A DNA stretch of 64,000 nt, from assembly GCA_964465945.1 (NCBI GenBank), contig CAYXMM010000002.1, positions 319,098-383,097 on the forward strand, in the 5' to 3' direction. The DNA comes from an uncultured Hyphomicrobiales bacterium. GTDB lineage: Bacteria; Bacteroidota; Ignavibacteria; Kapaibacteriales; UBA2268. The notes under the pieces were generated by a model. That model had not been told where the DNA came from and searched no databases. It saw only the letters and a list, made by a program, of their open reading frames with translations. Both the position numbers and the translations under genes were made by a program. This document shows, one piece after another, positions 4,335-33,069 of the stretch (its first letter is position 1; each line of letters opens with the position of its first letter).

Positions 4335-4793
4335 TTATCTAGTTAAGAAAGAGGCAATGACTTCATATATTTCCTCTAAATCGTCGGGTGATAATACAAT
4401 AAATGGACGTGCAGGTATTGATTTAGTTCCAAATTGATGAAATATAGAATATGGAGCATTGCTAGATATATAAATTTGATTATTTGAATGACCTACTTCT
4501 ATGTTCCTTTTAAGGTTACCTGTTCGGTATAAAATTGGAGTAATACCTAATCTGGAATTTGAGTAACTTTTAATAGTAGAATTACTTAGTTTAGCCCATT
4601 TTTCAGTACCACCTGAAAATAGGTCTATTTTAGAAGCGTTACCGTTCCAAGCACCTTGTAAATCAAAATTACGATTTATAATTTCAGAGATTAGTGCTAC
4701 TACATGAGGAAGCACTAAATTTAACTTAATATCGTCTCTAATTTCAGTAAGAGTTATATTAATTTTTTTAATAATATTATCGGAATTTAGCAT
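4335..4793 (-). CDS. Phage virion morphogenesis protein (Mu gpG-like)
   Basis: PILYRTGNLKRNI, YSIFHQFGT, IPARPF motifs; likely ATG at 4793 (the ORF-track extension to 4910 looks like shadow). Confidence 0.85.
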   Translation of the reverse strand: MLNSDNIIKKINITLTEIRDDIKLNLVLPHVVALISEIINRNFDLQGAWNGNASKIDLFSGGTEKWAKLSNSTIKSYSNSRLGITPILYRTGNLKRNIEVGHSNNQIYISSNAPYSIFHQFGTKSIPARPFIVLSPDDLEEIYEVIASFLTR

Positions 4794-4794
4794 A

Positions 4795-4971
4795 ATGGCA
4801 GAATCTTTAAATAATGAAAAAAAACCTATTTCAATGGGAGAACGTTGGCAAAGCGATATTAAAAGCATTTCCATAATGATAGAAAAGCAAGAAGAAAAAC
4901 CCAAAATCACAAAAGAGATAAGAGAATATTTTAAAAAAGAGTTTGGAGTTACTCTTTTGGATAATAAATGA
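4795..4971 (+). CDS. Unannotated 58-aa antisense ORF, candidate immunity protein of MuF-ART
   Basis: ATG 4795 to TGA 4969-4971, MAESLNNEKKPISMGERWQSDIKSISIMIEKQEEKPKITKEIREYFKKEFGVTLLDNK; A-rich plus strand unlike the T-rich flanks. Confidence 0.6.
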   Translation: MAESLNNEKKPISMGERWQSDIKSISIMIEKQEEKPKITKEIREYFKKEFGVTLLDNK

Positions 4972-6340
4972 GTGTAGCATAAAGAGTTTCAACATCTCTT
5001 TCTACTGGTTTTTTTCCTGTAATTTTAGTCATATCTGTTTTAACTTTTTTTTCTTTTATTAAATTAGTAACGTAAAAGCTTGAATTTGGTCTAAAAAGGA
5101 ACTCTTTTTCAAAATCACTTGCTACTCCTAACTTAGAACCTTTACCTACTTTAATCGTCATAAATATGCTATCCGCCCTATCATTATTAATATTAGCATA
5201 ACTTAATGAAATATCTTTTGAAGATGAGGCACTTAGAAAGGCTTTTTCTATAAATATTCCACTTTCTAAATCTTTTAAGATATTTAAATAGTCGTTAGTA
5301 AAACCTTCTGGGAAAAACATTCCACGATATAATAGTATGCTATGATTTAATTCATAACTTAAATCACCCTCTATGATTGTATTTGTTTTTTTAATATATT
5401 CATCTGTTAGTGATTGGTCGTCATTTGTTCCCCTTAACACTCTATTATATTTATCGTATGCTTCTCCCGCATATTCTTTAATACAATCTTTAACTTCTGG
5501 TTTTAAAGTTTCAAGATAATTAACACTTATATCTTTATATTCTTCATTAGACAATTCTTTAAATAAAATTTTGCTAAACATATTAATTAAATCCTCTTTA
5601 ACTTTATCTGGATACTGGCTTAAATCAGGTTTAAAATCTTCGGTAATTTTAAGTCCGTCTTTTTTGGTTTGATTTAATTGCTTCTTAAAAACATCGTCAT
5701 TACTTAAACGCTTTAAAAAATCATTTCCATTCTCAATTTTGATGCCCTCGTTATCTACTTCTTTTTGACTTAATGAACGGACAGAGCATTTGCAACCAAA
5801 TCGAGAGGGTGGATAGAATGTAGACCAGAAAGGATCATCATAAGGCAATACTTTGCCATAAAATTGTCTATGAAAATCGTTTTTTTCAGCCGATGTAGAG
5901 GCAATGTATTTCAAGTAAGGTCTAATACCAGATTTGCCTAATCTTTGTTGATGCTCATATTGTCCTTTTGCATAAGCAATATTCAAATTAGTTTCATAAA
6001 CAACTTTCAACCGATTTTCAGTTAATTTAGTTAATTTCCTTAATTCTTCGGTATCTTCTAAAAATTCGGTTAATGTTTGCCCTTTCTTTTTTGCTTCTTC
6101 AAGTTTATCATAAATTGCTTTAAGCATATCAGCCGAATGAATACCAGCCACCGTGAATGCTTGGTTGTGTGCTTTGGTGCTCATCTCTTGCCAATTAACC
6201 GTAGTTTTAAGATTTTTACCTTTATTTCGTAAATATTCAAGTTGTTTTTCGGGCTTCATTGTTAAGAGTTCTTTCATTATTTTATCTTTATCGAACTCAC
6301 TAAAAGCCAGGTTCAACATTTTTTTACTAAATATCCGCAT
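4949..6340 (-). CDS. MuF (gpF/SPP1 gp7-like) head protein fused to C-terminal VIP2-like ADP-ribosyltransferase
   Basis: N-terminal VYETN...AYAKG, YPPSRFGCKCSV; C-terminal YxxYNRVLRG, LYRG, FLSASS, FEKE (R-S-E). Probable ATG 6340 after GGGGGT. Confidence 0.9.
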   Translation of the reverse strand: MRIFSKKMLNLAFSEFDKDKIMKELLTMKPEKQLEYLRNKGKNLKTTVNWQEMSTKAHNQAFTVAGIHSADMLKAIYDKLEEAKKKGQTLTEFLEDTEELRKLTKLTENRLKVVYETNLNIAYAKGQYEHQQRLGKSGIRPYLKYIASTSAEKNDFHRQFYGKVLPYDDPFWSTFYPPSRFGCKCSVRSLSQKEVDNEGIKIENGNDFLKRLSNDDVFKKQLNQTKKDGLKITEDFKPDLSQYPDKVKEDLINMFSKILFKELSNEEYKDISVNYLETLKPEVKDCIKEYAGEAYDKYNRVLRGTNDDQSLTDEYIKKTNTIIEGDLSYELNHSILLYRGMFFPEGFTNDYLNILKDLESGIFIEKAFLSASSSKDISLSYANINNDRADSIFMTIKVGKGSKLGVASDFEKEFLFRPNSSFYVTNLIKEKKVKTDMTKITGKKPVERDVETLYATLIYYPKE

Positions 6341-7715
6341 TAAATACACCCCCTGCTTGTGAAGCCATTATTGCTGTTTTAAATAATTCTTCGATTTCAG
6401 AACTATCTAAATTTGAGTATCTATTTTCAATTAACTCTCTTGCTTCTTCGATAGTATTAGATTGTGTTATTAACTTAACTGCATAGTTCAACATTTTTTC
6501 ATTTGCTTTAAGTAATGCTTCCATTCCTGTATCGTCTATATGGTCGTGTTCTTCGTCCCCTTCAGTAAATTGAGGTGATGCTGGTGCGGATATTTCAAAT
6601 TCGTCTTCGGCTATACCATAATTTTTTTGAATGTAATTTTTATTAAATTTAATACCTACTTGTGTGGCTAATAGTCCATCTCTTTCAGCTAATATCTTAT
6701 CGACATCTTCTTGTTGATATAATCTAAAACGTGGAATATTAGATATAGTGCCGTAATTTATAGTGTATATTTTCTTAATTAATTCATTAAAAGCGGCTTC
6801 AACCATTTTTTTATCTGATTCAACTACGTCCGACCTTACTTGTAGATGTGTTTGGGACATTGCATAAGAACCGACATCACCTTGCTCCGTTGTTAATGTT
6901 TGTGATAAGATTACTTTCGATAGTTCAGAGTTCCAGAGGTGAATGAAGTCTTTAAATATCATTGGCGAGCTTGCTTTTGTTAAGTCAAGAAAAGTTACAT
7001 CGTCATCAGAATTAGTGACAACTACACCATCATGTCTGGCTTTATCTAAAGTCAATAGTAAATCTTCTGTACTTTTTTCAATAGTGGAGTTGGTTTTACC
7101 ATATAAAAACGGCATGCCATATTTTTCAATATAAGTAAGCCAAAATTTCGTTACATCTTTTTTAAATTTAACTGCCCAAAAACATTTAGAAAGCAATGCT
7201 TCACCGTAAGGATTAGTATAGGTTGCATTATGTTGAAGCAACAAAAATTTATTATTATTACAATAGACTTTTTCATTTTTAGCATTTACAAAATAACCTA
7301 AGTTATTAGAATTAAAAACGAACCAATCACATGGTTTGCCTATTATATCGACAGGTACATAAAAGCCATTGGTTAGTCGCCAATATATTTCAAGATATTT
7401 AAACCCATAAAGAGGGGCTTCCAGCATCTCTGATATTATTCGGTTTATATTAAGATTATTAAATATATTTTTAATAAATTCGTTCTCTCGACTCTCATCG
7501 TCATATAATATCTCCCATTCTAGCGAAAGTACACCAGATTTACGTGATTGAATTATACTCGATAAATGTGGGTCAGTTCTTAAATCATCGTAAGAACTAA
7601 TTCTATTACCTATTTGTCTTAATATTTTGTCTGGATTTGGCAGTTCATTATTAACAAAAGTTTTAAGCCAAGAATGCGATGTATCTCTTACAATTACATC
7701 TAATAAATTATTCAT
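6327..7715 (-). CDS. Portal protein (DUF935 / Mu gp29-like)
   Basis: NPYGEALL, IEKYGMP, ILSQTLTT, GSYAMSQTH motifs. Confidence 0.92.
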   Translation of the reverse strand: MNNLLDVIVRDTSHSWLKTFVNNELPNPDKILRQIGNRISSYDDLRTDPHLSSIIQSRKSGVLSLEWEILYDDESRENEFIKNIFNNLNINRIISEMLEAPLYGFKYLEIYWRLTNGFYVPVDIIGKPCDWFVFNSNNLGYFVNAKNEKVYCNNNKFLLLQHNATYTNPYGEALLSKCFWAVKFKKDVTKFWLTYIEKYGMPFLYGKTNSTIEKSTEDLLLTLDKARHDGVVVTNSDDDVTFLDLTKASSPMIFKDFIHLWNSELSKVILSQTLTTEQGDVGSYAMSQTHLQVRSDVVESDKKMVEAAFNELIKKIYTINYGTISNIPRFRLYQQEDVDKILAERDGLLATQVGIKFNKNYIQKNYGIAEDEFEISAPASPQFTEGDEEHDHIDDTGMEALLKANEKMLNYAVKLITQSNTIEEARELIENRYSNLDSSEIEELFKTAIMASQAGGVFNADI

Positions 7716-7723
7716 ATTTATCC

Positions 7724-9088
7724 CTAATAATTTTTATAATTATCAATTACATTATTAATTTTTCTTTCAAGATTAATTCTAGTTGGTTTATACATTTTAG
7801 ATAATACTTGGAATGCCATAGTCGTAGTATCAACAATATCGTCGTGTTTTCCAGCTGGGAATTGATTATGTTCGTTTAAGAAATCGTCTAAAAATGATTT
7901 ATTCTTGGGTAAGAACACACGACCTGCTTCAATATATGGAGTTGTTGTATGTGCTCTAACCACTTTATCCATTGGAGCAATACCTCTTACGTTTAATTTA
8001 CTCTCACGTCGGAGTATCTGTATTAATGATTTACCACTTCCAGCGTCTTCAATATAGATTACATTTGGTTTATGTTTATCATACTGGTTTTCAGAGGCAA
8101 CTTTTAACTCTGGAAATTGTAATTTGTCTCTAAATAAATCAATTAAATAAAAATTGTCATCATTCCAACCCCAGGTAGCACAAACAGAGTAATCATTTTC
8201 TTTTCCTTTTTCAAAAGCAGTGTCCCAGACTTGTATAACATTGTCAAATTTAATTTCACCTTCATTATAGTATTTCCACCAGTATTTTTGAAATATTTGA
8301 TGCTCATTGTCAACAGGTTGCTGTTGATACATTGCAGAAAAAAAGTAAGAACCGACGGACTTCTTTATTTTTTCAAGTTCAGTAATATTATAACGCTCTG
8401 GGAAAAGGGCTTCACCAACTTTACGATTTAAAACATCGTCATTAGTTGCAATAGCAGGGAAATCGACGACATGCCAGTCGGCAGAAGTTTCACTTGCTAA
8501 TATACGACCTACTAAATCGTCATGATGCCAGCGAGTCATTACTATAATCATAGAGCCGTTAGGTTCTAACCTATTAAATGCAGTAGATTGATACCACCTG
8601 TATACTTTATCTCGATAAACATTACTAAATGCTTCGTCGCTATTTTTTACTGGGTCATCTATTATAAATAAATTTGCACCTTTTCCTGTGATAGAACCTC
8701 CAACACCGACAGCAGTTAAACTACCTTTTCTGTTTTTTATAGTCCAATGGTTATTTCTATCTATACCAACTTCAAGATTTTTCAAATACGAATAATCTTT
8801 AAAGTGTAATTTAGACTTCATAGCCCATTGTTCCGCTAACTCTAATGAATATGAACTTATTATTATCTGGTCATTTGGGCGATTTAAAAGCCACCAAAAA
8901 GGCAAGTATTCTGAAATCAAATGAGATTTTCCGTGTCTTGGTGGCATTGAGACTATCAACCTTTTAATCTCACCGCTATATACTTTTAACAATTTATCTT
9001 CGAGTAATAATAAATGCTCCGCTGGAATATATTCATTATTAGTTCCTTTACTATCCAACATCGCACAATATATTGGAGTGTTTATCAT
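7724..9088 (-). CDS. Terminase large subunit
   Basis: MPPRHGKS Walker A, IIDDP Walker B, WDTA, IED, HDDIVD nuclease motifs. Confidence 0.95.
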   Translation of the reverse strand: MINTPIYCAMLDSKGTNNEYIPAEHLLLLEDKLLKVYSGEIKRLIVSMPPRHGKSHLISEYLPFWWLLNRPNDQIIISSYSLELAEQWAMKSKLHFKDYSYLKNLEVGIDRNNHWTIKNRKGSLTAVGVGGSITGKGANLFIIDDPVKNSDEAFSNVYRDKVYRWYQSTAFNRLEPNGSMIIVMTRWHHDDLVGRILASETSADWHVVDFPAIATNDDVLNRKVGEALFPERYNITELEKIKKSVGSYFFSAMYQQQPVDNEHQIFQKYWWKYYNEGEIKFDNVIQVWDTAFEKGKENDYSVCATWGWNDDNFYLIDLFRDKLQFPELKVASENQYDKHKPNVIYIEDAGSGKSLIQILRRESKLNVRGIAPMDKVVRAHTTTPYIEAGRVFLPKNKSFLDDFLNEHNQFPAGKHDDIVDTTTMAFQVLSKMYKPTRINLERKINNVIDNYKNY

Positions 9089-9516
9089 TTATCTCTTAAC
9101 GTCCTAATAAAATCTTGATATTTTGCTATCTGTTCATCGGTTTTGGGTACTAAACTCAACTCTATGTTATTCTTATTATCAAAACTAACTTCAACTTTAT
9201 CAGTATAACCTCTTTCTTTACCTTTCATCTTCAAGAAAAATTCTATTGCATTGAATTTAATTCTTTCATTTTTAGACCGCATTAGTGAATGTAAACCTTC
9301 CTCAGCCGTATCCATCGCTTCATCCATAATATCCTGTAATACTTCTGGATTATTCAAAGCCCTAATTCTTACTGCTTGTCTTGAATACTCAATATTATAC
9401 TGCTCTCTTATTTTACGAGCAGTTCTTGCAAATATTCCAACGTTTTCTCGTAATACTGAAAAGAACTGTTCGTCGCTTAATTTCACGGGTCTGGATTTAC
9501 TTTTAAGTTTTGCCAT
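9085..9516 (-). CDS. Terminase small subunit (probable)
   Basis: Directly upstream of TerL; AIEFFLKMKGKERGY motif. Confidence 0.75.
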   Translation of the reverse strand: MAKLKSKSRPVKLSDEQFFSVLRENVGIFARTARKIREQYNIEYSRQAVRIRALNNPEVLQDIMDEAMDTAEEGLHSLMRSKNERIKFNAIEFFLKMKGKERGYTDKVEVSFDNKNNIELSLVPKTDEQIAKYQDFIRTLRDK

Positions 9517-9534
9517 AAGTTGTCAATATCTCCT

Positions 9535-10965
9535 TTAAAATTCAGGGATTAACGTTTCAGTATCTAAATTTTCCAAATATGATAAATCTAAAACTGGGAA
9601 GTGTTCAGCTATTTTAGTAGTATCTCCTTTGTAAAAGACCAGTACGTTTTGGTGATGTTTGCCTGCTTTCCTTGATTTACTAAATTGACTACCTACTCTA
9701 ATTGGAAGACTTGCAAGGTGATTAACTAAAATCATTTCATTATATAATGACAAACCTGCCTTCTCAAAGCATTCAATAGTATATGAAACAAAGTTCTTAT
9801 AACTACCATTTTTATTTCTAACATCAGCAACAACGAAAACAGCAAATCTATTTTCATTCAACACCCCGCAGGATTTGTTAATAATATCAAAATAAGTCTT
9901 TTTAAATTCATCGTAAGGCATATTTGACAAATCGGCAGGGTCATCTGAATAAACTTCTAAATCCGCATAAGGAGGGCAGGAGAATAACAAATCAAACTTT
10001 TCGCCTTTAAAAATTTCATCTATGTTTTTACTATCTCCATAAGTCCAAGTTGGTCTTAAATTCTTATTCTTGATAACATCATTAACTTTACTAACTTCTT
10101 CATAATTTTTGATATTTGCCTCTACTTGTTCCTTTCTTAAATCATTACCATAATATTTAAACCCTAATTTAGAAGCAACTATACCTCTCACAGAACCACC
10201 TGCAAAAGGATCTAGTATCTTTCCATTCTGGGTGTTAAACCATAAATAAGATAACTCACATAATACTGGGTCAAAAATCGAAGTTGAGCCATTTTCACCA
10301 CCTAATAGTTTTATCCCTCTTTTCCCTGCCTCTTTAAACACTGAATCTGTATCAGCAGGCAATCCTTTTGCTTTCATCTCATTTTTTAAATCGTAATATC
10401 TTGGTGATTGAGCGGATTTGCCAAATGTCAATCCGCCTTCTCTTCCTAACTCACTTTTAATTCCTAAGTCTAACCACCAGTTCTTTCTTTGTTGCCATTG
10501 TCCTAATTTGGTGTCTAACACTGAAAATGGTGGTATTAAAAACCTGTCAATTAACTTTTTAGGTCTAGCATTAATAAAAGCATCGTCTTCAACTATAAAT
10601 TCTTTTTCTAACTCCAGTCCCCACTCATCTAACAATGTATTATCCCATTCATTTGCGAGTATATCCGTGTCCCATTCTCCATACCCAAGATTATCTTTGA
10701 TTATAAACTCTTTTTTTTGTTCTTCCGTTAAATCATCGGCTTTAATAACATACACTTTCTTATGCCCCGCTTTTTCACAAGATTTCAATCTCATATTACC
10801 ACCAAGTACCATAAAGTTGTTATCAACAACAATAGGTCGTAATTTTAACATCTCTGGGAAATCTTGAATAGATTTAACAAGTTTATCAAATCTATAATCT
10901 TTTATTATTCTTGGATTGTTAGGGTTTGGTTTGACTTGACTAATATCAATTAATTGAATATTCAT
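9535..10965 (-). CDS. ParB-like N-terminal domain fused to DNA amino-methyltransferase
   Basis: KPNPNNPR...PIVVD...GGNMR; ILDPFAGGS motif I followed by SCPPY motif IV. Confidence 0.88.
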   Translation of the reverse strand: MNIQLIDISQVKPNPNNPRIIKDYRFDKLVKSIQDFPEMLKLRPIVVDNNFMVLGGNMRLKSCEKAGHKKVYVIKADDLTEEQKKEFIIKDNLGYGEWDTDILANEWDNTLLDEWGLELEKEFIVEDDAFINARPKKLIDRFLIPPFSVLDTKLGQWQQRKNWWLDLGIKSELGREGGLTFGKSAQSPRYYDLKNEMKAKGLPADTDSVFKEAGKRGIKLLGGENGSTSIFDPVLCELSYLWFNTQNGKILDPFAGGSVRGIVASKLGFKYYGNDLRKEQVEANIKNYEEVSKVNDVIKNKNLRPTWTYGDSKNIDEIFKGEKFDLLFSCPPYADLEVYSDDPADLSNMPYDEFKKTYFDIINKSCGVLNENRFAVFVVADVRNKNGSYKNFVSYTIECFEKAGLSLYNEMILVNHLASLPIRVGSQFSKSRKAGKHHQNVLVFYKGDTTKIAEHFPVLDLSYLENLDTETLIPEF

Positions 10966-14713: not shown

Positions 14714-14783
14714 GCGGGAATGTTCTAATGTAAGAAGCGTTACTGCCAGTAACGAGATGGGAGTTCAAGTCTTTCTTTCCGCT
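14714..14783 (+). tRNA. Phage tRNA-Gly(GCC)
   Basis: Acceptor GCGGGAA/TTTCCGC, D stem TTCT/AGAA, anticodon stem CGTTA/TAACG with loop CTGCCAG, T loop TTCAAGT, U discriminator; no CCA. Confidence 0.8.
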
Positions 14784-14785
14784 CT

Positions 14786-17371: not shown

Positions 17372-17889
17372 TTATGAGTATAAAGAATTTAGATAATGCT
17401 GTTAGTTGGGATGATATTACAGATAAGCCAGCCGAATTAGGTGGCGATATTGCTTTCTCAGATTTAACTGACGGGTTTGCATTAACAGGAAATGCGAATA
17501 AAGTAGTTGGAGTTAATTCTGCTGGAAACGCCCTTGAACCTAAGACTATAAGCACAGGTGCAGAAACAATACAAACTAAGACGGCTTCAAGCGAGTCGGC
17601 TGGTTCAGTCGATTTAAGTTTAGGTCATTGGCTTGAATTAAACTGCGATGCAGATTTTAGTTTCTCAATAATTGACACAACTAAGATGACGGCTGGATAT
17701 ACTTATAAGGTGGATTGTAAAAATACAAAAAGTCCATCGGGGGTTGTAACTGGGAGCATTCCAACTGGTTGGTGGAGTAATGTTGGCTCAAGTTTGCCAC
17801 TGGCTACCGGCGAGAGTGCTCCTGCGTTTCTAACAAAAAATAGTGCAGGTGTCATTAATATTTTATTTGGAATTCAGCAGGTAGTATAA
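17368..17889 (+). CDS. Tail fibre-associated protein
   Basis: VSWDDITDKP and FSDLTD...NANKVVGVNS motifs typical of fibre proteins. Confidence 0.55.
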   Translation: MIMSIKNLDNAVSWDDITDKPAELGGDIAFSDLTDGFALTGNANKVVGVNSAGNALEPKTISTGAETIQTKTASSESAGSVDLSLGHWLELNCDADFSFSIIDTTKMTAGYTYKVDCKNTKSPSGVVTGSIPTGWWSNVGSSLPLATGESAPAFLTKNSAGVINILFGIQQVV

Positions 17890-18566
17890 TGTTTATAACA
17901 AAAAGACCATATTTGAACTTAAAACTGAATGGGAATATAACTGATAGCGGAACTGGACAAAACTCTGGGACAAACTCAGGAGTGACTTTTACAGCTGATG
18001 AATTTGGGCGTAGTAATATGGCGGCTGACTTTGATAGTAGAAATGACTATATTTCATTTAGTTCAGCTGTAGCGGAACAAGTAGCTATCTATCGTAATAG
18101 TGCTTCGACAATTTCATTTTTTATAAATATATCGTCACTTAATGCAAGCGCTAATAATATTGTATCTGCTTACAATAGCGGAGCGACAATAGGATTTCAG
18201 CATTATATCACAAGTACAAATTCAGCAAATTTGATAAGCGCTTCAGGCACAGGCGGAGTATATAATAATACAGCCACCACGGGAACTTGGATGTTTATAG
18301 TTGCTACAACAAAAGATTTTGATGCGACTCAAGTATCGGTGGAAATGTATAAAAATAGTACCCTTTCGGCTTTAAGCTCAGGTAGTGATAAAAATGCAAA
18401 AGTAACACCTACCACGGGGCTTAATTCATTGCGGATAGGCAACACTTCATTCGCGAGTACCTCTGGTATGACAGCTAAATTAAATAATTTTAAAATTTAT
18501 GACAAAAATTTAAGTTTAGCACAAATAAAAGTATTAAATATTGGAAAAGGGCGATTAGCATCGTAA
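17889..18566 (+). CDS. LamG/concanavalin-like domain virion protein
   Basis: DEFGRSNMAADFD, TISFFI, WMFIVAT, NNFKIYDKNLS pattern. Confidence 0.8.
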   Translation: MFITKRPYLNLKLNGNITDSGTGQNSGTNSGVTFTADEFGRSNMAADFDSRNDYISFSSAVAEQVAIYRNSASTISFFINISSLNASANNIVSAYNSGATIGFQHYITSTNSANLISASGTGGVYNNTATTGTWMFIVATTKDFDATQVSVEMYKNSTLSALSSGSDKNAKVTPTTGLNSLRIGNTSFASTSGMTAKLNNFKIYDKNLSLAQIKVLNIGKGRLAS

Positions 18567-18581
18567 AAAAGGAATAATAAA

Positions 18582-19118
18582 ATGATATATGATAAAATAA
18601 GCAAGCAATTTATAAATATGAATCCCAATCAAATCGGTTCAGAGACGGATAGATTTGTAATATTAAATGAAGAACAAATTCAACGTGCAAATGAAATGAT
18701 TAGTGCAGGTCATTTTAATGAAGATTATGTGCTTGAAGGCACTATCACACCTCCTACTTTGGAGTATTTAAAAGGAATTGCTACAGAAACAGTAAAAAAT
18801 AATTTCTATTTATTGATTAAAGACGGATGCGCGTATAATGGATTTGTGTTTAATTACGATGAAAATACGATGAATAACATTTTATTGCAAAAAAACAGAT
18901 ATGAGTTTGAAGGTGGTGATATATTTAAAATTTCGGACAGAACAAAGACACAAAGACAATTTACTAAAAATCAGTTATGGGCTTTTGGCGCTGAATTTAG
19001 TGGGTATTTAGCACCGAGAAAAGAATGGTATTCTGACATAATGAATGAGATTGAAAAAGCAGAAACGATTGAAGCATTAAATTTAATCAACTTAGAATAC
19101 CCAACAGAAGAAGAATGA
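18582..19118 (+). CDS. Tail fibre assembly-like protein (DUF4376-like)
   Basis: C-terminal EIEKAETIEALNLINLEY motif. Confidence 0.6.
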   Translation: MIYDKISKQFINMNPNQIGSETDRFVILNEEQIQRANEMISAGHFNEDYVLEGTITPPTLEYLKGIATETVKNNFYLLIKDGCAYNGFVFNYDENTMNNILLQKNRYEFEGGDIFKISDRTKTQRQFTKNQLWAFGAEFSGYLAPRKEWYSDIMNEIEKAETIEALNLINLEYPTEEE

Positions 19119-19555
19119 AATTAGCATTTTATAAATATGAATTTGGAAACTGGAAAGATTGGTTAATTGCTAAATTAACTAATTCAAAATATAGTCATAT
19201 TGAGTTAATATTTGATAGTGGGTCTAGTTTAAGTTCAAGCCCACGCGATGGTGGTGTTAGATTCAAGAAAATTGAATATAAACCTGAACGTTGGGACTTT
19301 TTGAATATAGACAGCGAAATAGACAGAGAAAGAGATGAGTATTTAGACCGTGCATTTGACTTGATTAACCATAGGCATCGATACGACTGGCTTTCAATCT
19401 TCTTAGGGTGGGCTGGTATTAAGTCATACAATAGATTTAATTGCGTTAATGCTTGTATGTATGTTATAGATGCAGATTTTAAGTATTACACTCCGCAAGG
19501 AGTTTATGAAAAATTACAGCGGGGTGGAGCAGTAGGTAGCTCGCTGGTTTCATAA
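19115..19555 (+). CDS. Permuted papain-like (NlpC/P60) amidase-family phage protein
   Basis: YSHIEL precedes RYDW...FNC (His before Cys); last 38 nt overlap the tRNA. Confidence 0.7.
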   Translation: MKLAFYKYEFGNWKDWLIAKLTNSKYSHIELIFDSGSSLSSSPRDGGVRFKKIEYKPERWDFLNIDSEIDRERDEYLDRAFDLINHRHRYDWLSIFLGWAGIKSYNRFNCVNACMYVIDADFKYYTPQGVYEKLQRGGAVGSSLVS

Positions 19556-19590
19556 GCCAGAGGTCGCAGGTTCAAATCCTGCTTCCGCAA
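19518..19590 (+). tRNA. Phage initiator-type tRNA-fMet(CAU)
   Basis: AGCGGGGTGGAGCAG...TTCATAA...GGTTCAAATCCTGCTTCCGCAA; 1:72 mismatch and A11-U24 pair typical of initiators. Confidence 0.88.
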
Positions 19591-19613
19591 CTAAAAAAAG
19601 AGAGAGCAGTATT

Positions 19614-19751
19614 ATGCAACAAAAAAAATGTAGAGTATATAGAACTTATACAAATAGCACAGGTGATATCGTTATTGAGTATGAAGATGGTTCAACTCTC
19701 ATAGTAAAACCTAGACAAAACGATGGTTTGTTTGGGAAAAAATGCTTCTAA
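19614..19751 (+). CDS. Small hypothetical protein (45 aa)
   Basis: MQQKKCRVYRTYTNSTGDIVIEYEDGSTLIVKP; fills the gap after the tRNA. Confidence 0.55.
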   Translation: MQQKKCRVYRTYTNSTGDIVIEYEDGSTLIVKPRQNDGLFGKKCF

Positions 19752-19764
19752 ATAAGAGGTAAAA

Positions 19765-19959
19765 ATGATTGTATTAACTAATTTAGATGGTTTGAAGGTT
19801 TATATAAAGCATGAGAAAATCAGTGTAATAAATGAAGTTAAAGATGATGGTGATATAAAAGATTTTACTTTAATTTGGTGCGACGGGTGTTTAATTGAAG
19901 TCAAAGAAAGTGTAAAAGAAATATTAACTAAAATAGCATACAAGGACAGGTTAAATTGA
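19765..19959 (+). CDS. FlbD-like small protein
   Basis: MIVLTNLDG.KVYI...I..I.E....VKESVKEI resembles the FlbD pattern. Confidence 0.5.
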   Translation: MIVLTNLDGLKVYIKHEKISVINEVKDDGDIKDFTLIWCDGCLIEVKESVKEILTKIAYKDRLN

Positions 19960-20984
19960 GTATTAATTATAAAATATTATGGAATGAGAATAATGATTTT
20001 TTAGAGCAGGAGGTACCCGCTCCAACTAATACATTCTTTGTAAGTTATGCTTATAATGGATACCAAAGCCCTTATTTTTCAAATATTCAAGACGCAATAA
20101 ATGAATGCGATGGAGTTAGTTACTACGATATCATTGTTTTTGCTGGAACTTATATAGAAACTCTAACATTAAAAGATAGAGTTCATTTACATTTTGAGAA
20201 TAATACAAGATTGCACCCTGTTACTGGTAATAGTGGAATTATATTCCCAGATAGTTCAACTAATATAAGTATAACTGGCAACTTAGATATACTTAGCGAT
20301 TTAACTACAGCACATACTGGTAAATATACGATAGAAACAAAGGGTGGGCTTCATAAAATAGAATTAAAATCCATTAGTAATACTGGTAATGCAACTTATC
20401 CAATAAGATTGAATGGGAATATAAATCTAAATGTAATGAATGTAACTTGTCCGATTGAATTAGTTTCTGATTCAACAGGTGAAATTAAAGCAAGAATAGT
20501 AAATAAGATTAAGAATAATGGTGCAGTTTATACACTAAAATCTGAATATATAGACGGGCAGATTTGGAATTATGCAGGTAATTTATATGTGTATGATTGT
20601 ATCTCAAAGGTTACTAATGGTGTCGCTTTTAAAGTTGAAAGTGGGGAGCTAGTATTAAATGGATGTACTGCAAAAGAATATAGTGAGTCTAGCACAGCAA
20701 TAGTTGAAATTAAAGGTGGATTAACAAGGATTAAAAATTGTTATTTAAAGCATACTTCGGATTTTGGCTCAACAATATTGCAGAATTACAATTCAACTAA
20801 TACTAATTTAATACTGGTAGCAAGCACATTGATTTCGGGTTCTCATACAACAGCGTTTAGCATAAAGAGTAATTTTTTAACTTATTATTCTTGCTATGGT
20901 AGTAATGTATATACGAATAGACCGACTGACTTAAACACAAATTATAAGATAAATTCAATAGTAGTAAGCACAGATGTAATTTAA
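19956..20984 (+). CDS. Pectin-lyase-like beta-helix protein (tailspike/depolymerase candidate)
   Basis: NIQDAIN...IIVFAGTYIETLTLK start followed by N/I/T-rich rungs. Confidence 0.65.
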   Translation: MSINYKILWNENNDFLEQEVPAPTNTFFVSYAYNGYQSPYFSNIQDAINECDGVSYYDIIVFAGTYIETLTLKDRVHLHFENNTRLHPVTGNSGIIFPDSSTNISITGNLDILSDLTTAHTGKYTIETKGGLHKIELKSISNTGNATYPIRLNGNINLNVMNVTCPIELVSDSTGEIKARIVNKIKNNGAVYTLKSEYIDGQIWNYAGNLYVYDCISKVTNGVAFKVESGELVLNGCTAKEYSESSTAIVEIKGGLTRIKNCYLKHTSDFGSTILQNYNSTNTNLILVASTLISGSHTTAFSIKSNFLTYYSCYGSNVYTNRPTDLNTNYKINSIVVSTDVI

Positions 20985-21007
20985 TAATTAATAAAGGAGA
21001 TAGAGTA

Positions 21008-21736
21008 ATGGCTCTTTCAATGAAAAACAACATAATCCTAAACCAAGTTCCAGTAGCTTGGTTATTTAAAGCATCAGGCACTTCGGGAGGTGCCGCTAGT
21101 TTAGAAATAGTATATAAATTTGATAATACTGCATCAGCTAAGGTAAATATACCATTAGCAAGTGCAGCTGCTTCGTCAGATTCAAAAAACGTTCAAATAA
21201 CAAGAGGAGATGGTGCAATTATACAATTTCCTGCCGTTGATCTAACATTAGACGGGACTGACGAAACAGTTATTGCGGCTTCGTCTGGGTCAGGGGACGC
21301 AGGTAAAGGTACTATTGAACTGGTGGTGAATGAAGCACCAATTGGGTTATCTTCATTTACAGCGTTTATCGGAGATTTAGTTGCTAATAAAGATACTATG
21401 TTTTTGGTTATTATACCTACTGGTTACTCTTATTCAAGAAAAGGGACTGGTACATCAAAAGAACCAGACGGCTTTATTTTTGCTTGGGCTAAATTTAGTG
21501 CGAATATAGATTTGAACTATAATAACCAACATAACCCTTTAACTTTATCTTTTGCGGTTCAAAAGAATACAGAGTTTATAGGTGATTTAACCAGTGACCC
21601 TTTTACAGGGCAAGGAATTGCTATTAAACTTGGTGGTTCAGATATTTCAGCCACTTTAAATATACCACCTGCTTTAACAAGTGAACAACAAACATTATTA
21701 AATTCTGGTGGAATTGTGGTTGTAGAAAATGACTAA
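21008..21736 (+). CDS. Probable major tail protein
   Basis: Strong RBS, A/S/G/T-rich, 242 aa; no defining motif recognised. Confidence 0.45.
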   Translation: MALSMKNNIILNQVPVAWLFKASGTSGGAASLEIVYKFDNTASAKVNIPLASAAASSDSKNVQITRGDGAIIQFPAVDLTLDGTDETVIAASSGSGDAGKGTIELVVNEAPIGLSSFTAFIGDLVANKDTMFLVIIPTGYSYSRKGTGTSKEPDGFIFAWAKFSANIDLNYNNQHNPLTLSFAVQKNTEFIGDLTSDPFTGQGIAIKLGGSDISATLNIPPALTSEQQTLLNSGGIVVVEND

Positions 21737-32953: not shown

Positions 32954-32995
32954 CTTCTAACCTATTGGATTAGAATAATCTATAATTTAGTCTTG

Positions 32996-33069
32996 TGGGC
33001 CTGGAGGGACTTGAACCCCCGACAAACGGATTATGAGTCCGCTGCTCTAACCGACTGAGCTACAAGCCC
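32996..33069 (-). tRNA. Host tRNA with CAU anticodon, probably tRNA-Ile2; prophage attachment site
   Basis: GGGCTTGTAGCTCAGTCGGTTAGAGCAGCGGACTCATAATCCGT...GGTTCAAGTCCCTCCAGGCCCA; TAATTTTG promoter-like element at 33107-33114. Confidence 0.92.

Follow-up and report, generated by a model that had tools for sequence, protein, structure and literature searches.

An initiator-type tRNA with a variant anticodon arm overlaps a protein gene in a prophage late operon

A prophage late operon with embedded tRNA genes

The window, by which we mean the whole 64,000-nucleotide stretch of DNA that was analysed, lies at C2:319098-383097 of a host genome of 2.94 Mb with 30% G+C assembled in 24 contigs (G000 in the coordinates of other contigs). 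It carries prophage genes, and the host genes adjoining the prophage encode T9SS sorting domains, which places the host in Bacteroidota. Most of the sequencing runs containing this DNA are metagenomes of bioreactors and activated sludge; some sampled soil or wastewater. The following features were assigned:

4335-10965, minus strand: prophage genes for a MuF/ART protein, the portal, the large terminase and a ParB-methyltransferase
11099-32840, plus strand: late (head-tail) operon with almost no intergenic space, in which the tRNA(CAU) at 19518 is embedded
14714-14784, plus strand: second prophage tRNA, Gly(GCC), with ORFs directly adjoining at either end
17401-19598, plus strand: 2.2-kb module shared at 99.5% identity with a second copy at G000:C5:52237-50040
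19115-19555, plus strand: 146-aa ORF P0001 (phrog_1128), with its final 12 codons and stop inside the tRNA
19518-19555, plus strand: 38-nt overlap of ORF and tRNA, coding for the run-on tail (Q)RGGAVGSSLVS and the stop
19518-19590, plus strand: prophage initiator-type tRNA(CAU), assigned by ARAGORN, Rfam and base reading; CCA not encoded
about 32993-33069, minus strand: elongator-type tRNA(CAU) of the host, marking the right end of the prophage

The products of the late operon include a protease/scaffold protein, the major head protein, an adaptor, a CHAP lysin, large tail proteins and a 2090-aa protein. The 3' 19 nt of the elongator-type tRNA(CAU) at the right end (32993-33011) recur at G000:C2:298806-298824; the two repeats are probably attL and attR, and their spacing gives a prophage of approximately 53 kb. 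Among the head genes, a MuF domain is fused to an ADP-ribosyltransferase toxin domain (PF04233 + PF03496; 4949-6349, minus strand). A BLAST search of the phage collection with positions 18000-21500 revealed no related phage, only matches of tRNA length.

Packing of tRNA genes without spacers is not confined to the tRNA(CAU) of this phage, as the tRNA-Gly(GCC) gene shows it likewise: it begins one base past the stop of the adaptor ORF (14713) and ends two bases short of an ATG (14786). This tRNA has an odd D arm (UUCU/AGAA); a first Rfam run with gathering thresholds missed it, whereas it scored 48.3 bits in the genome-wide search. Its anticodon loop reads CUGCCAG, that of the host tRNA-Gly(GCC) UUGCCAA. 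Directly 3' of the tRNA(CAU) lies a small ORF of about 45 codons (19614-19752, plus strand), which is missing from the second prophage described below, where the next gene follows about 20 nt past the tRNA. Inspection by eye of the region upstream of the tRNA(CAU) revealed no motif of the TAnnTTTG type. Contigs from RNA libraries covered parts of 17401-19524 at low depth, with DNA carry-over possible, and none extended beyond. As the tRNA is repeated, contigs of DNA runs break there as well, and the ends of the RNA contigs thus give no firm information on transcription or processing.

Structure of the tRNA and its overlap with the upstream gene

ARAGORN assigned a tRNA-Met(CAT) to 19518-19591 on the plus strand, and 19518-19590 matched Rfam model RF00005 with 58.7 bits (E 3.9e-10). 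The acceptor stem consists of G2-C71, C3-G70, G4-C69, G5-C68, G6.U67 and G7.U66 below an A1xA72 mismatch, followed by A73. The D stem is GAGC/GCUC, which places A11:U24 in the tRNA; elongator tRNAs carry Y11:R24. The anticodon stem is formed by C27-G43, U28-A42, G29-C41, G30-C40 and U31.G39 and encloses the loop UUCAUAA, so that position 32 is U; the variable loop has 5 nt and the T arm is normal. The cloverleaf is also the minimum free energy fold, in which U32 pairs with A38 and closes the loop. This predicted pairing might impair decoding or recognition by MetRS.

Position 1:72 is without a Watson-Crick pair both in the window copy (A1xA72) and in the copy of the second prophage (A1xC72). 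The formylation determinants G2-C71, C3-G70, G4-C69 and A73 are all found in the window copy, the second copy having G4.U69. Of the three consecutive G-C pairs characteristic of initiators (29:41, 30:40 and 31:39) two are present, the third being U.G. The retained G30-C40 is the pair that is essential in E. coli (PMC5389676). An Ile2 (lysidine) identity of this CAU tRNA was considered and is ruled out by the initiator-type acceptor and D stems. The first-pass annotation, made from the letters alone, had described initiator hallmarks, U31.G39, U32 and a 38-nt overlap with the ORF; every one of these details agrees with the sequence, ARAGORN and Rfam. Its claim of a phage gene of initiator type also holds, the tRNA being embedded in the prophage late operon. 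We therefore regard 19518-19590, with high confidence, as a real initiator-type tRNA.

The tRNA resembles bacterial tRNA-fMet, including the host copy on contig C7 and E. coli metZ/metY, in CAU, the 1x72 mismatch, G2-C71/C3-G70, A73, A11:U24, G29-C41, G30-C40 and the 5-nt variable loop. It is unlike the host initiator in having U31.G39 for G31-C39, U32 for C32 and A1 for C1, in its 27:43 and 28:42 pairs, and in its place within a late operon, overlapping a protein gene.

The ORF at 19115-19555 ends in YEKLQRGGAVGSSLVS before its stop, and its TAA (19553-19555) is U36-A37-A38 of the anticodon loop. The position of the stop in the loop is automatic and no second coincidence, because UAA is in-frame in any CAU tRNA with A37-A38. 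Residues 1-135 of the encoded protein P0001 match phrog_1128, and one homologue is named YycO in its source. The first-pass annotation had proposed checking where homologues end relative to the YE residues. Those without a tRNA tail end 3-8 residues past the conserved TPQ..YE motif; a homologue from the same genus, where the tRNA is absent, terminates in YELVQKKK. The last 12 codons of P0001 thus represent a run-on extension that is non-functional or dispensable. None of 112 loci with distant homologues (identity at most 48%) had an adjacent tRNA, and among the 36 metagenome contigs with the same anticodon arm (see below) none had the P0001 ORF upstream and none a long frame entering the tRNA. 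We consider it highly probable that the overlap is incidental. It may be a by-product of tight packing: the gene would have lost its own stop and would read on to the UAA of the anticodon loop.

The overlap nevertheless has a logical consequence. RNase P cleavage between 19517 and 19518 would strip the ORF mRNA of its stop, so that tRNA and protein would be exclusive products of any one transcript. A transcript matured into tRNA would leave a non-stop mRNA for the upstream gene; a tmRNA is encoded in the host genome (tag ANDNYALAA). As in the tRNA punctuation of animal mitochondria, tRNA excision would set the 3' end of the upstream mRNA. Unlike in animal mitochondria, where polyadenylation completes the stop, excision would here remove the stop and yield a non-stop mRNA for rescue by tmRNA.

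The same ORF-tRNA pair is present in a second prophage of the same genome, on contig C5 (tRNA at G000:C5:50047-50120; protein 99% identical). The two prophages are otherwise dissimilar and have only the 2.2-kb module in common. Their tRNAs differ at ten positions (9, 17, 52, 57, 59, 62, 66, 67, 69 and 72), and in its T arm the C5 copy almost matches the host initiator. The difference at 52:62 is compensatory, those in the acceptor stem are swaps between G.U and G-C, and the 1x72 mismatch is found in both copies. Since the ORF does not extend into the 3' half of the tRNA, it is the structure of the tRNA that the retained pairing reflects. The location of the differences at positions 9, 17 and 52-72 places a mosaic junction in or just after the tRNA, which has the appearance of a site where mosaic phage genomes recombined. 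Metagenome contigs branch at the tRNA, too.

Such a junction raises the question whether the tRNA is a non-functional relic, that is, a remnant of recombination or of a former attachment site kept as the 3' end of the ORF. The end of the inter-prophage identity in or just after the tRNA, the branching of metagenome contigs there and the acceptor-stem bulges of some class members (see below) are in line with this explanation. However, compensatory changes preserve the pairing of the T arm and of the 3' acceptor strand, neither of which is part of the ORF, every initiator identity element is intact, and the Rfam score is 58.7 bits. We consider a relic very unlikely, and the initiator-type tRNA is probably functional.

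Distribution of the variant anticodon arm

Five CAU tRNAs are encoded in the host genome, namely two of elongator type (at C1:277117 and at the att site), one canonical initiator and the two variant initiator-type copies of the prophages. The canonical initiator is

G000:C7:48143-48216: host initiator tRNA with C1xU72 and the arm UCGGG-CUCAUAA-CCCGA

It is chromosomal, as it is flanked by a PAP2 gene and a gene for an AddA-like helicase. Among the host tRNAs it is nearest to the phage tRNAs (55-58 of 73 positions identical, compared with 44-49 of 73 for the two elongator-type CAU tRNAs); 15-18 positions differ, seven of them within the 17-nt anticodon arm. A pattern scan detected initiator-type arms in 98 of 130 genomes of the host family, and all were GGGCUCAUAACCC save the two prophage copies. 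An identical stem in the host initiator had been named as a finding that would contradict the idea of a nuclease-resistant spare initiator; the C7 copy turned out to be canonical, as did the other copies found in the family.

The exact U31/U32/G39 arm was searched for with the pattern AGCUC-N3-GGUUUCAUAAGCC-N3-GGU. It occurs on 13 IMG/VR viral contigs and on 36 metagenome contigs of 27-63% G+C; among 185,579 reference species genomes it was found once, on a 4-kb contig of a Saccharibacteria MAG. Covariation among the 34 distinct tRNAs that carry this arm extends over 27:43, 28:42, the entire T stem and the acceptor stem; the acceptor stem is clean in 22 of them, and in 17 of these position 1:72 has no Watson-Crick pair. 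In a soil metagenome (run X6), a contig with a near-identical upstream region carries a tRNA with C27U and G43A together with U28C and A42G, a double compensatory exchange, and with G7A, which creates A7-U66; U31, U32 and G39 are unaltered. Judged by these sequences, the variant arm recurs, almost exclusively in viral sequence collections, and is no one-off lesion. Phrase searches of the literature retrieved no published description of a virus-associated GC/GC/UG initiator arm with U32. Phage-encoded tRNA-Met and tRNA-fMet genes as such are ordinary; what is new is the stem and position 32 of a phage initiator tRNA, while the anticodon stays the standard CAU.

The proteins P0003 (92% identity), P0004 (73%) and P0007 (48%) also end in G(S/G)S(L/S)VS before the stop. 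The overlap with a tRNA is inferred in these cases from the protein tails, not from DNA. The valine codon in the tails implies G30-U31, since the canonical G31 would give glycine.

These distributions bear on the question whether the arm has any special function. Under tolerated drift the tRNA would be a working or semi-working spare in which the third pair and position 32 have changed with no special function attached to the arm. The essential load would be borne by the host copy, and of the three G-C pairs the third is under the least constraint: E. coli survives on initiators mutated in it (3rd AU, CG or GU), G30 being the essential base (PMC5389676). Moreover, the non-G31 initiator-like tRNAs sampled here show many states at 31:39, in viral and in cellular DNA: C-G, U.G and A-U, and also U/U, C/C and A/C mismatches. 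These scans of both collections covered a sample of the matches, and the proportions they give are those of the sample and no counts. However, a change from G-C to U31.G39 demands a mismatch intermediate, U31.G39 is retained while neighbouring pairs covary as well as in homologues down to 48% identity, and the exact arm is strongly skewed to viruses (13 viral contigs versus one in 185,579 species genomes). Drift is thus an explanation which we consider rather unlikely, and the covariation around an unchanged core suggests, with moderate confidence, that the variant arm is maintained by selection.

The specialness of the arm is limited by its relatives. Among the non-G31 initiator-like tRNAs listed, both the sister arm with C32, GGUCUCAUAAGCC (U31.G39), and the flipped C31-G39 are frequent, in viral and cellular sequences alike. 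In two CPR MAGs, of Saccharibacteria (L275/L363) and Azambacteria (L310/L362), GGUCUCAUAAGCC was the sole initiator-type CAU arm found, which suggests that U31.G39 can serve in a cellular initiator. It may be the normal cellular initiator pair of these two genomes, outside the R:Y rule described in PMC5389676, according to which natural cellular third-pair variants keep the order purine:pyrimidine (GC/GC/gu) and do not include U31.G39. Because cellular assemblies often contain the sister arm with C32, U31.G39 alone is consistent with normal cellular initiation and calls for no explanation by defence.

Several initiator-like tRNAs with Y31:G39 from phages or prophages (L118 12702-12778; L203 and L304, Devosia; L130) have an apparent extra, bulged base in the 5' acceptor strand, of which CGCGGUGG and UGCGUGGG are examples. 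One such bulged tRNA is common to a viral contig and a Devosia chromosome.

The phage arm is similar to the 3GC variants studied by Shetty et al. 2017 (au/GC/GC, GC/GC/gu, 3rd CG; PMC5389676) in that the third pair alone of the three is altered and G30-C40 is kept. It differs from them in being pyrimidine:purine, U31.G39 combined with U32, and the U.G form is outside the mutants tested there. The 3GC pairs govern the 30S-to-70S transition and the release of IF3 (PMC5389676), and one may thus ask whether the arm shifts IF3/P-site proofreading or start-site choice in favour of phage late mRNAs. Yet the anticodon is the standard CAU, and the late genes begin with ordinary ATG, GTG and TTG codons, no unusual start codons being seen among them. 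Altered initiation is an improbable explanation.

A possible spare initiator resistant to anticodon-arm nucleases

The explanation which we favour is that the tRNA would be transcribed within the late operon, excised by RNase P and 3' nucleases, and then, after addition of CCA, be charged, formylated and used in initiation; CCA is encoded by no tRNA gene of the host genome. It would act as a spare tRNA-fMet which keeps what initiation needs, namely CAU, the 1x72 mismatch, G2-C71/C3-G70/G4-C69/A73, A11:U24, and G29-C41 and G30-C40 as the two stem pairs in contact with the P site. The replacement of G31-C39 by U31.G39 and of C32 by U32 would have the effect of hiding the phage copy from enzymes that recognise the invariant host arm. 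A known example of such enzymes would be the VapC-type PIN toxins, which cut between A38 and C39.

Enteric and leptospiral VapC cut tRNA-fMet between A38 and C39 (PMC4105405). The phage tRNA has G39 for C39 directly 3' of this bond, besides U31 for G31 and U32 for C32. The host genome harbours two VapBC-like pairs, in each of which the PIN-domain ORF (123 and 137 aa, respectively) is overlapped by a small upstream ORF:

L124 1236-1866 (G000:C1): putative VapBC-like pair
L125 1432-2044 (G000:C10): putative VapBC-like pair

The two host PIN/VapC-like proteins are encoded at G000:C1:375001-375330 and C10:1779-2117, and one of them resembles solved VapC chains (7by2, E 8e-10). Changes in the anticodon loops of phage tRNAs were previously proposed to evade anticodon nucleases (PMC10264068). 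Speaking against evasion here, the same survey reported that phages facing VapC-LT2, a VapC that cleaves tRNA-fMet, mostly avoid encoding tRNA-fMet. Like the phage tRNAs of van den Berg et al. 2023 (PMC10264068), the tRNA described here is a phage copy of a nuclease target that differs at or next to the cleavage site; unlike those, it has one of its changes in the stem (31:39) and not in the loop alone. By analogy with these systems, nuclease evasion may tentatively be put forward as the reason for the variant arm, at a probability well below even.

A related possibility is self-protection, in which a phage factor would inactivate the host initiator while the phage initiator is immune to it by virtue of the variant arm. 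The prophage encodes the MuF-fused ADP-ribosyltransferase toxin at 4949-6349, and ADP-ribosyltransferase toxins that modify tRNA anticodon loops are described (PMC13617354). A link between this toxin and the tRNA is absent, however, and the reading is pure inference; it is extremely unlikely.

Concerning the interpretation given in the first-pass annotation as a whole, the prophage initiator, the difference from the host stem and the near confinement of the arm to viral DNA stand, and nuclease resistance keeps the tentative status given above. The complete statement, comprising a functional spare initiator, a maintained virus-associated arm, the evasion rationale and an incidental overlap, is one we advance with reservation, its chances being somewhat short of even. 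Going further, the U31.G39/U32 arm, perhaps together with the wider Y31:G39 group, could define a virus-restricted class of initiators orthogonal to attack, whether the attacker is a VapC-like toxin of the host or a shut-off factor of the phage, and provide a private initiator pool during host shut-down; this generalisation is speculative and we consider it unlikely.

How translation and RNase P compete for a single transcript could be studied in a simple natural setting at the ORF-tRNA overlap. All translation depends on the initiator tRNA as a single point of failure, and as its anticodon arm is invariant in the host family it would be an ideal target for abortive-infection toxins. The phage variant retains the elements of initiation and alters nucleotides at the known VapC cut site. 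If evasion is indeed its function, such tRNAs would provide natural sequences for the engineering of nuclease-resistant or orthogonal initiators, and the idea of counter-defence by phage tRNAs would extend from elongator tRNAs to the initiator.
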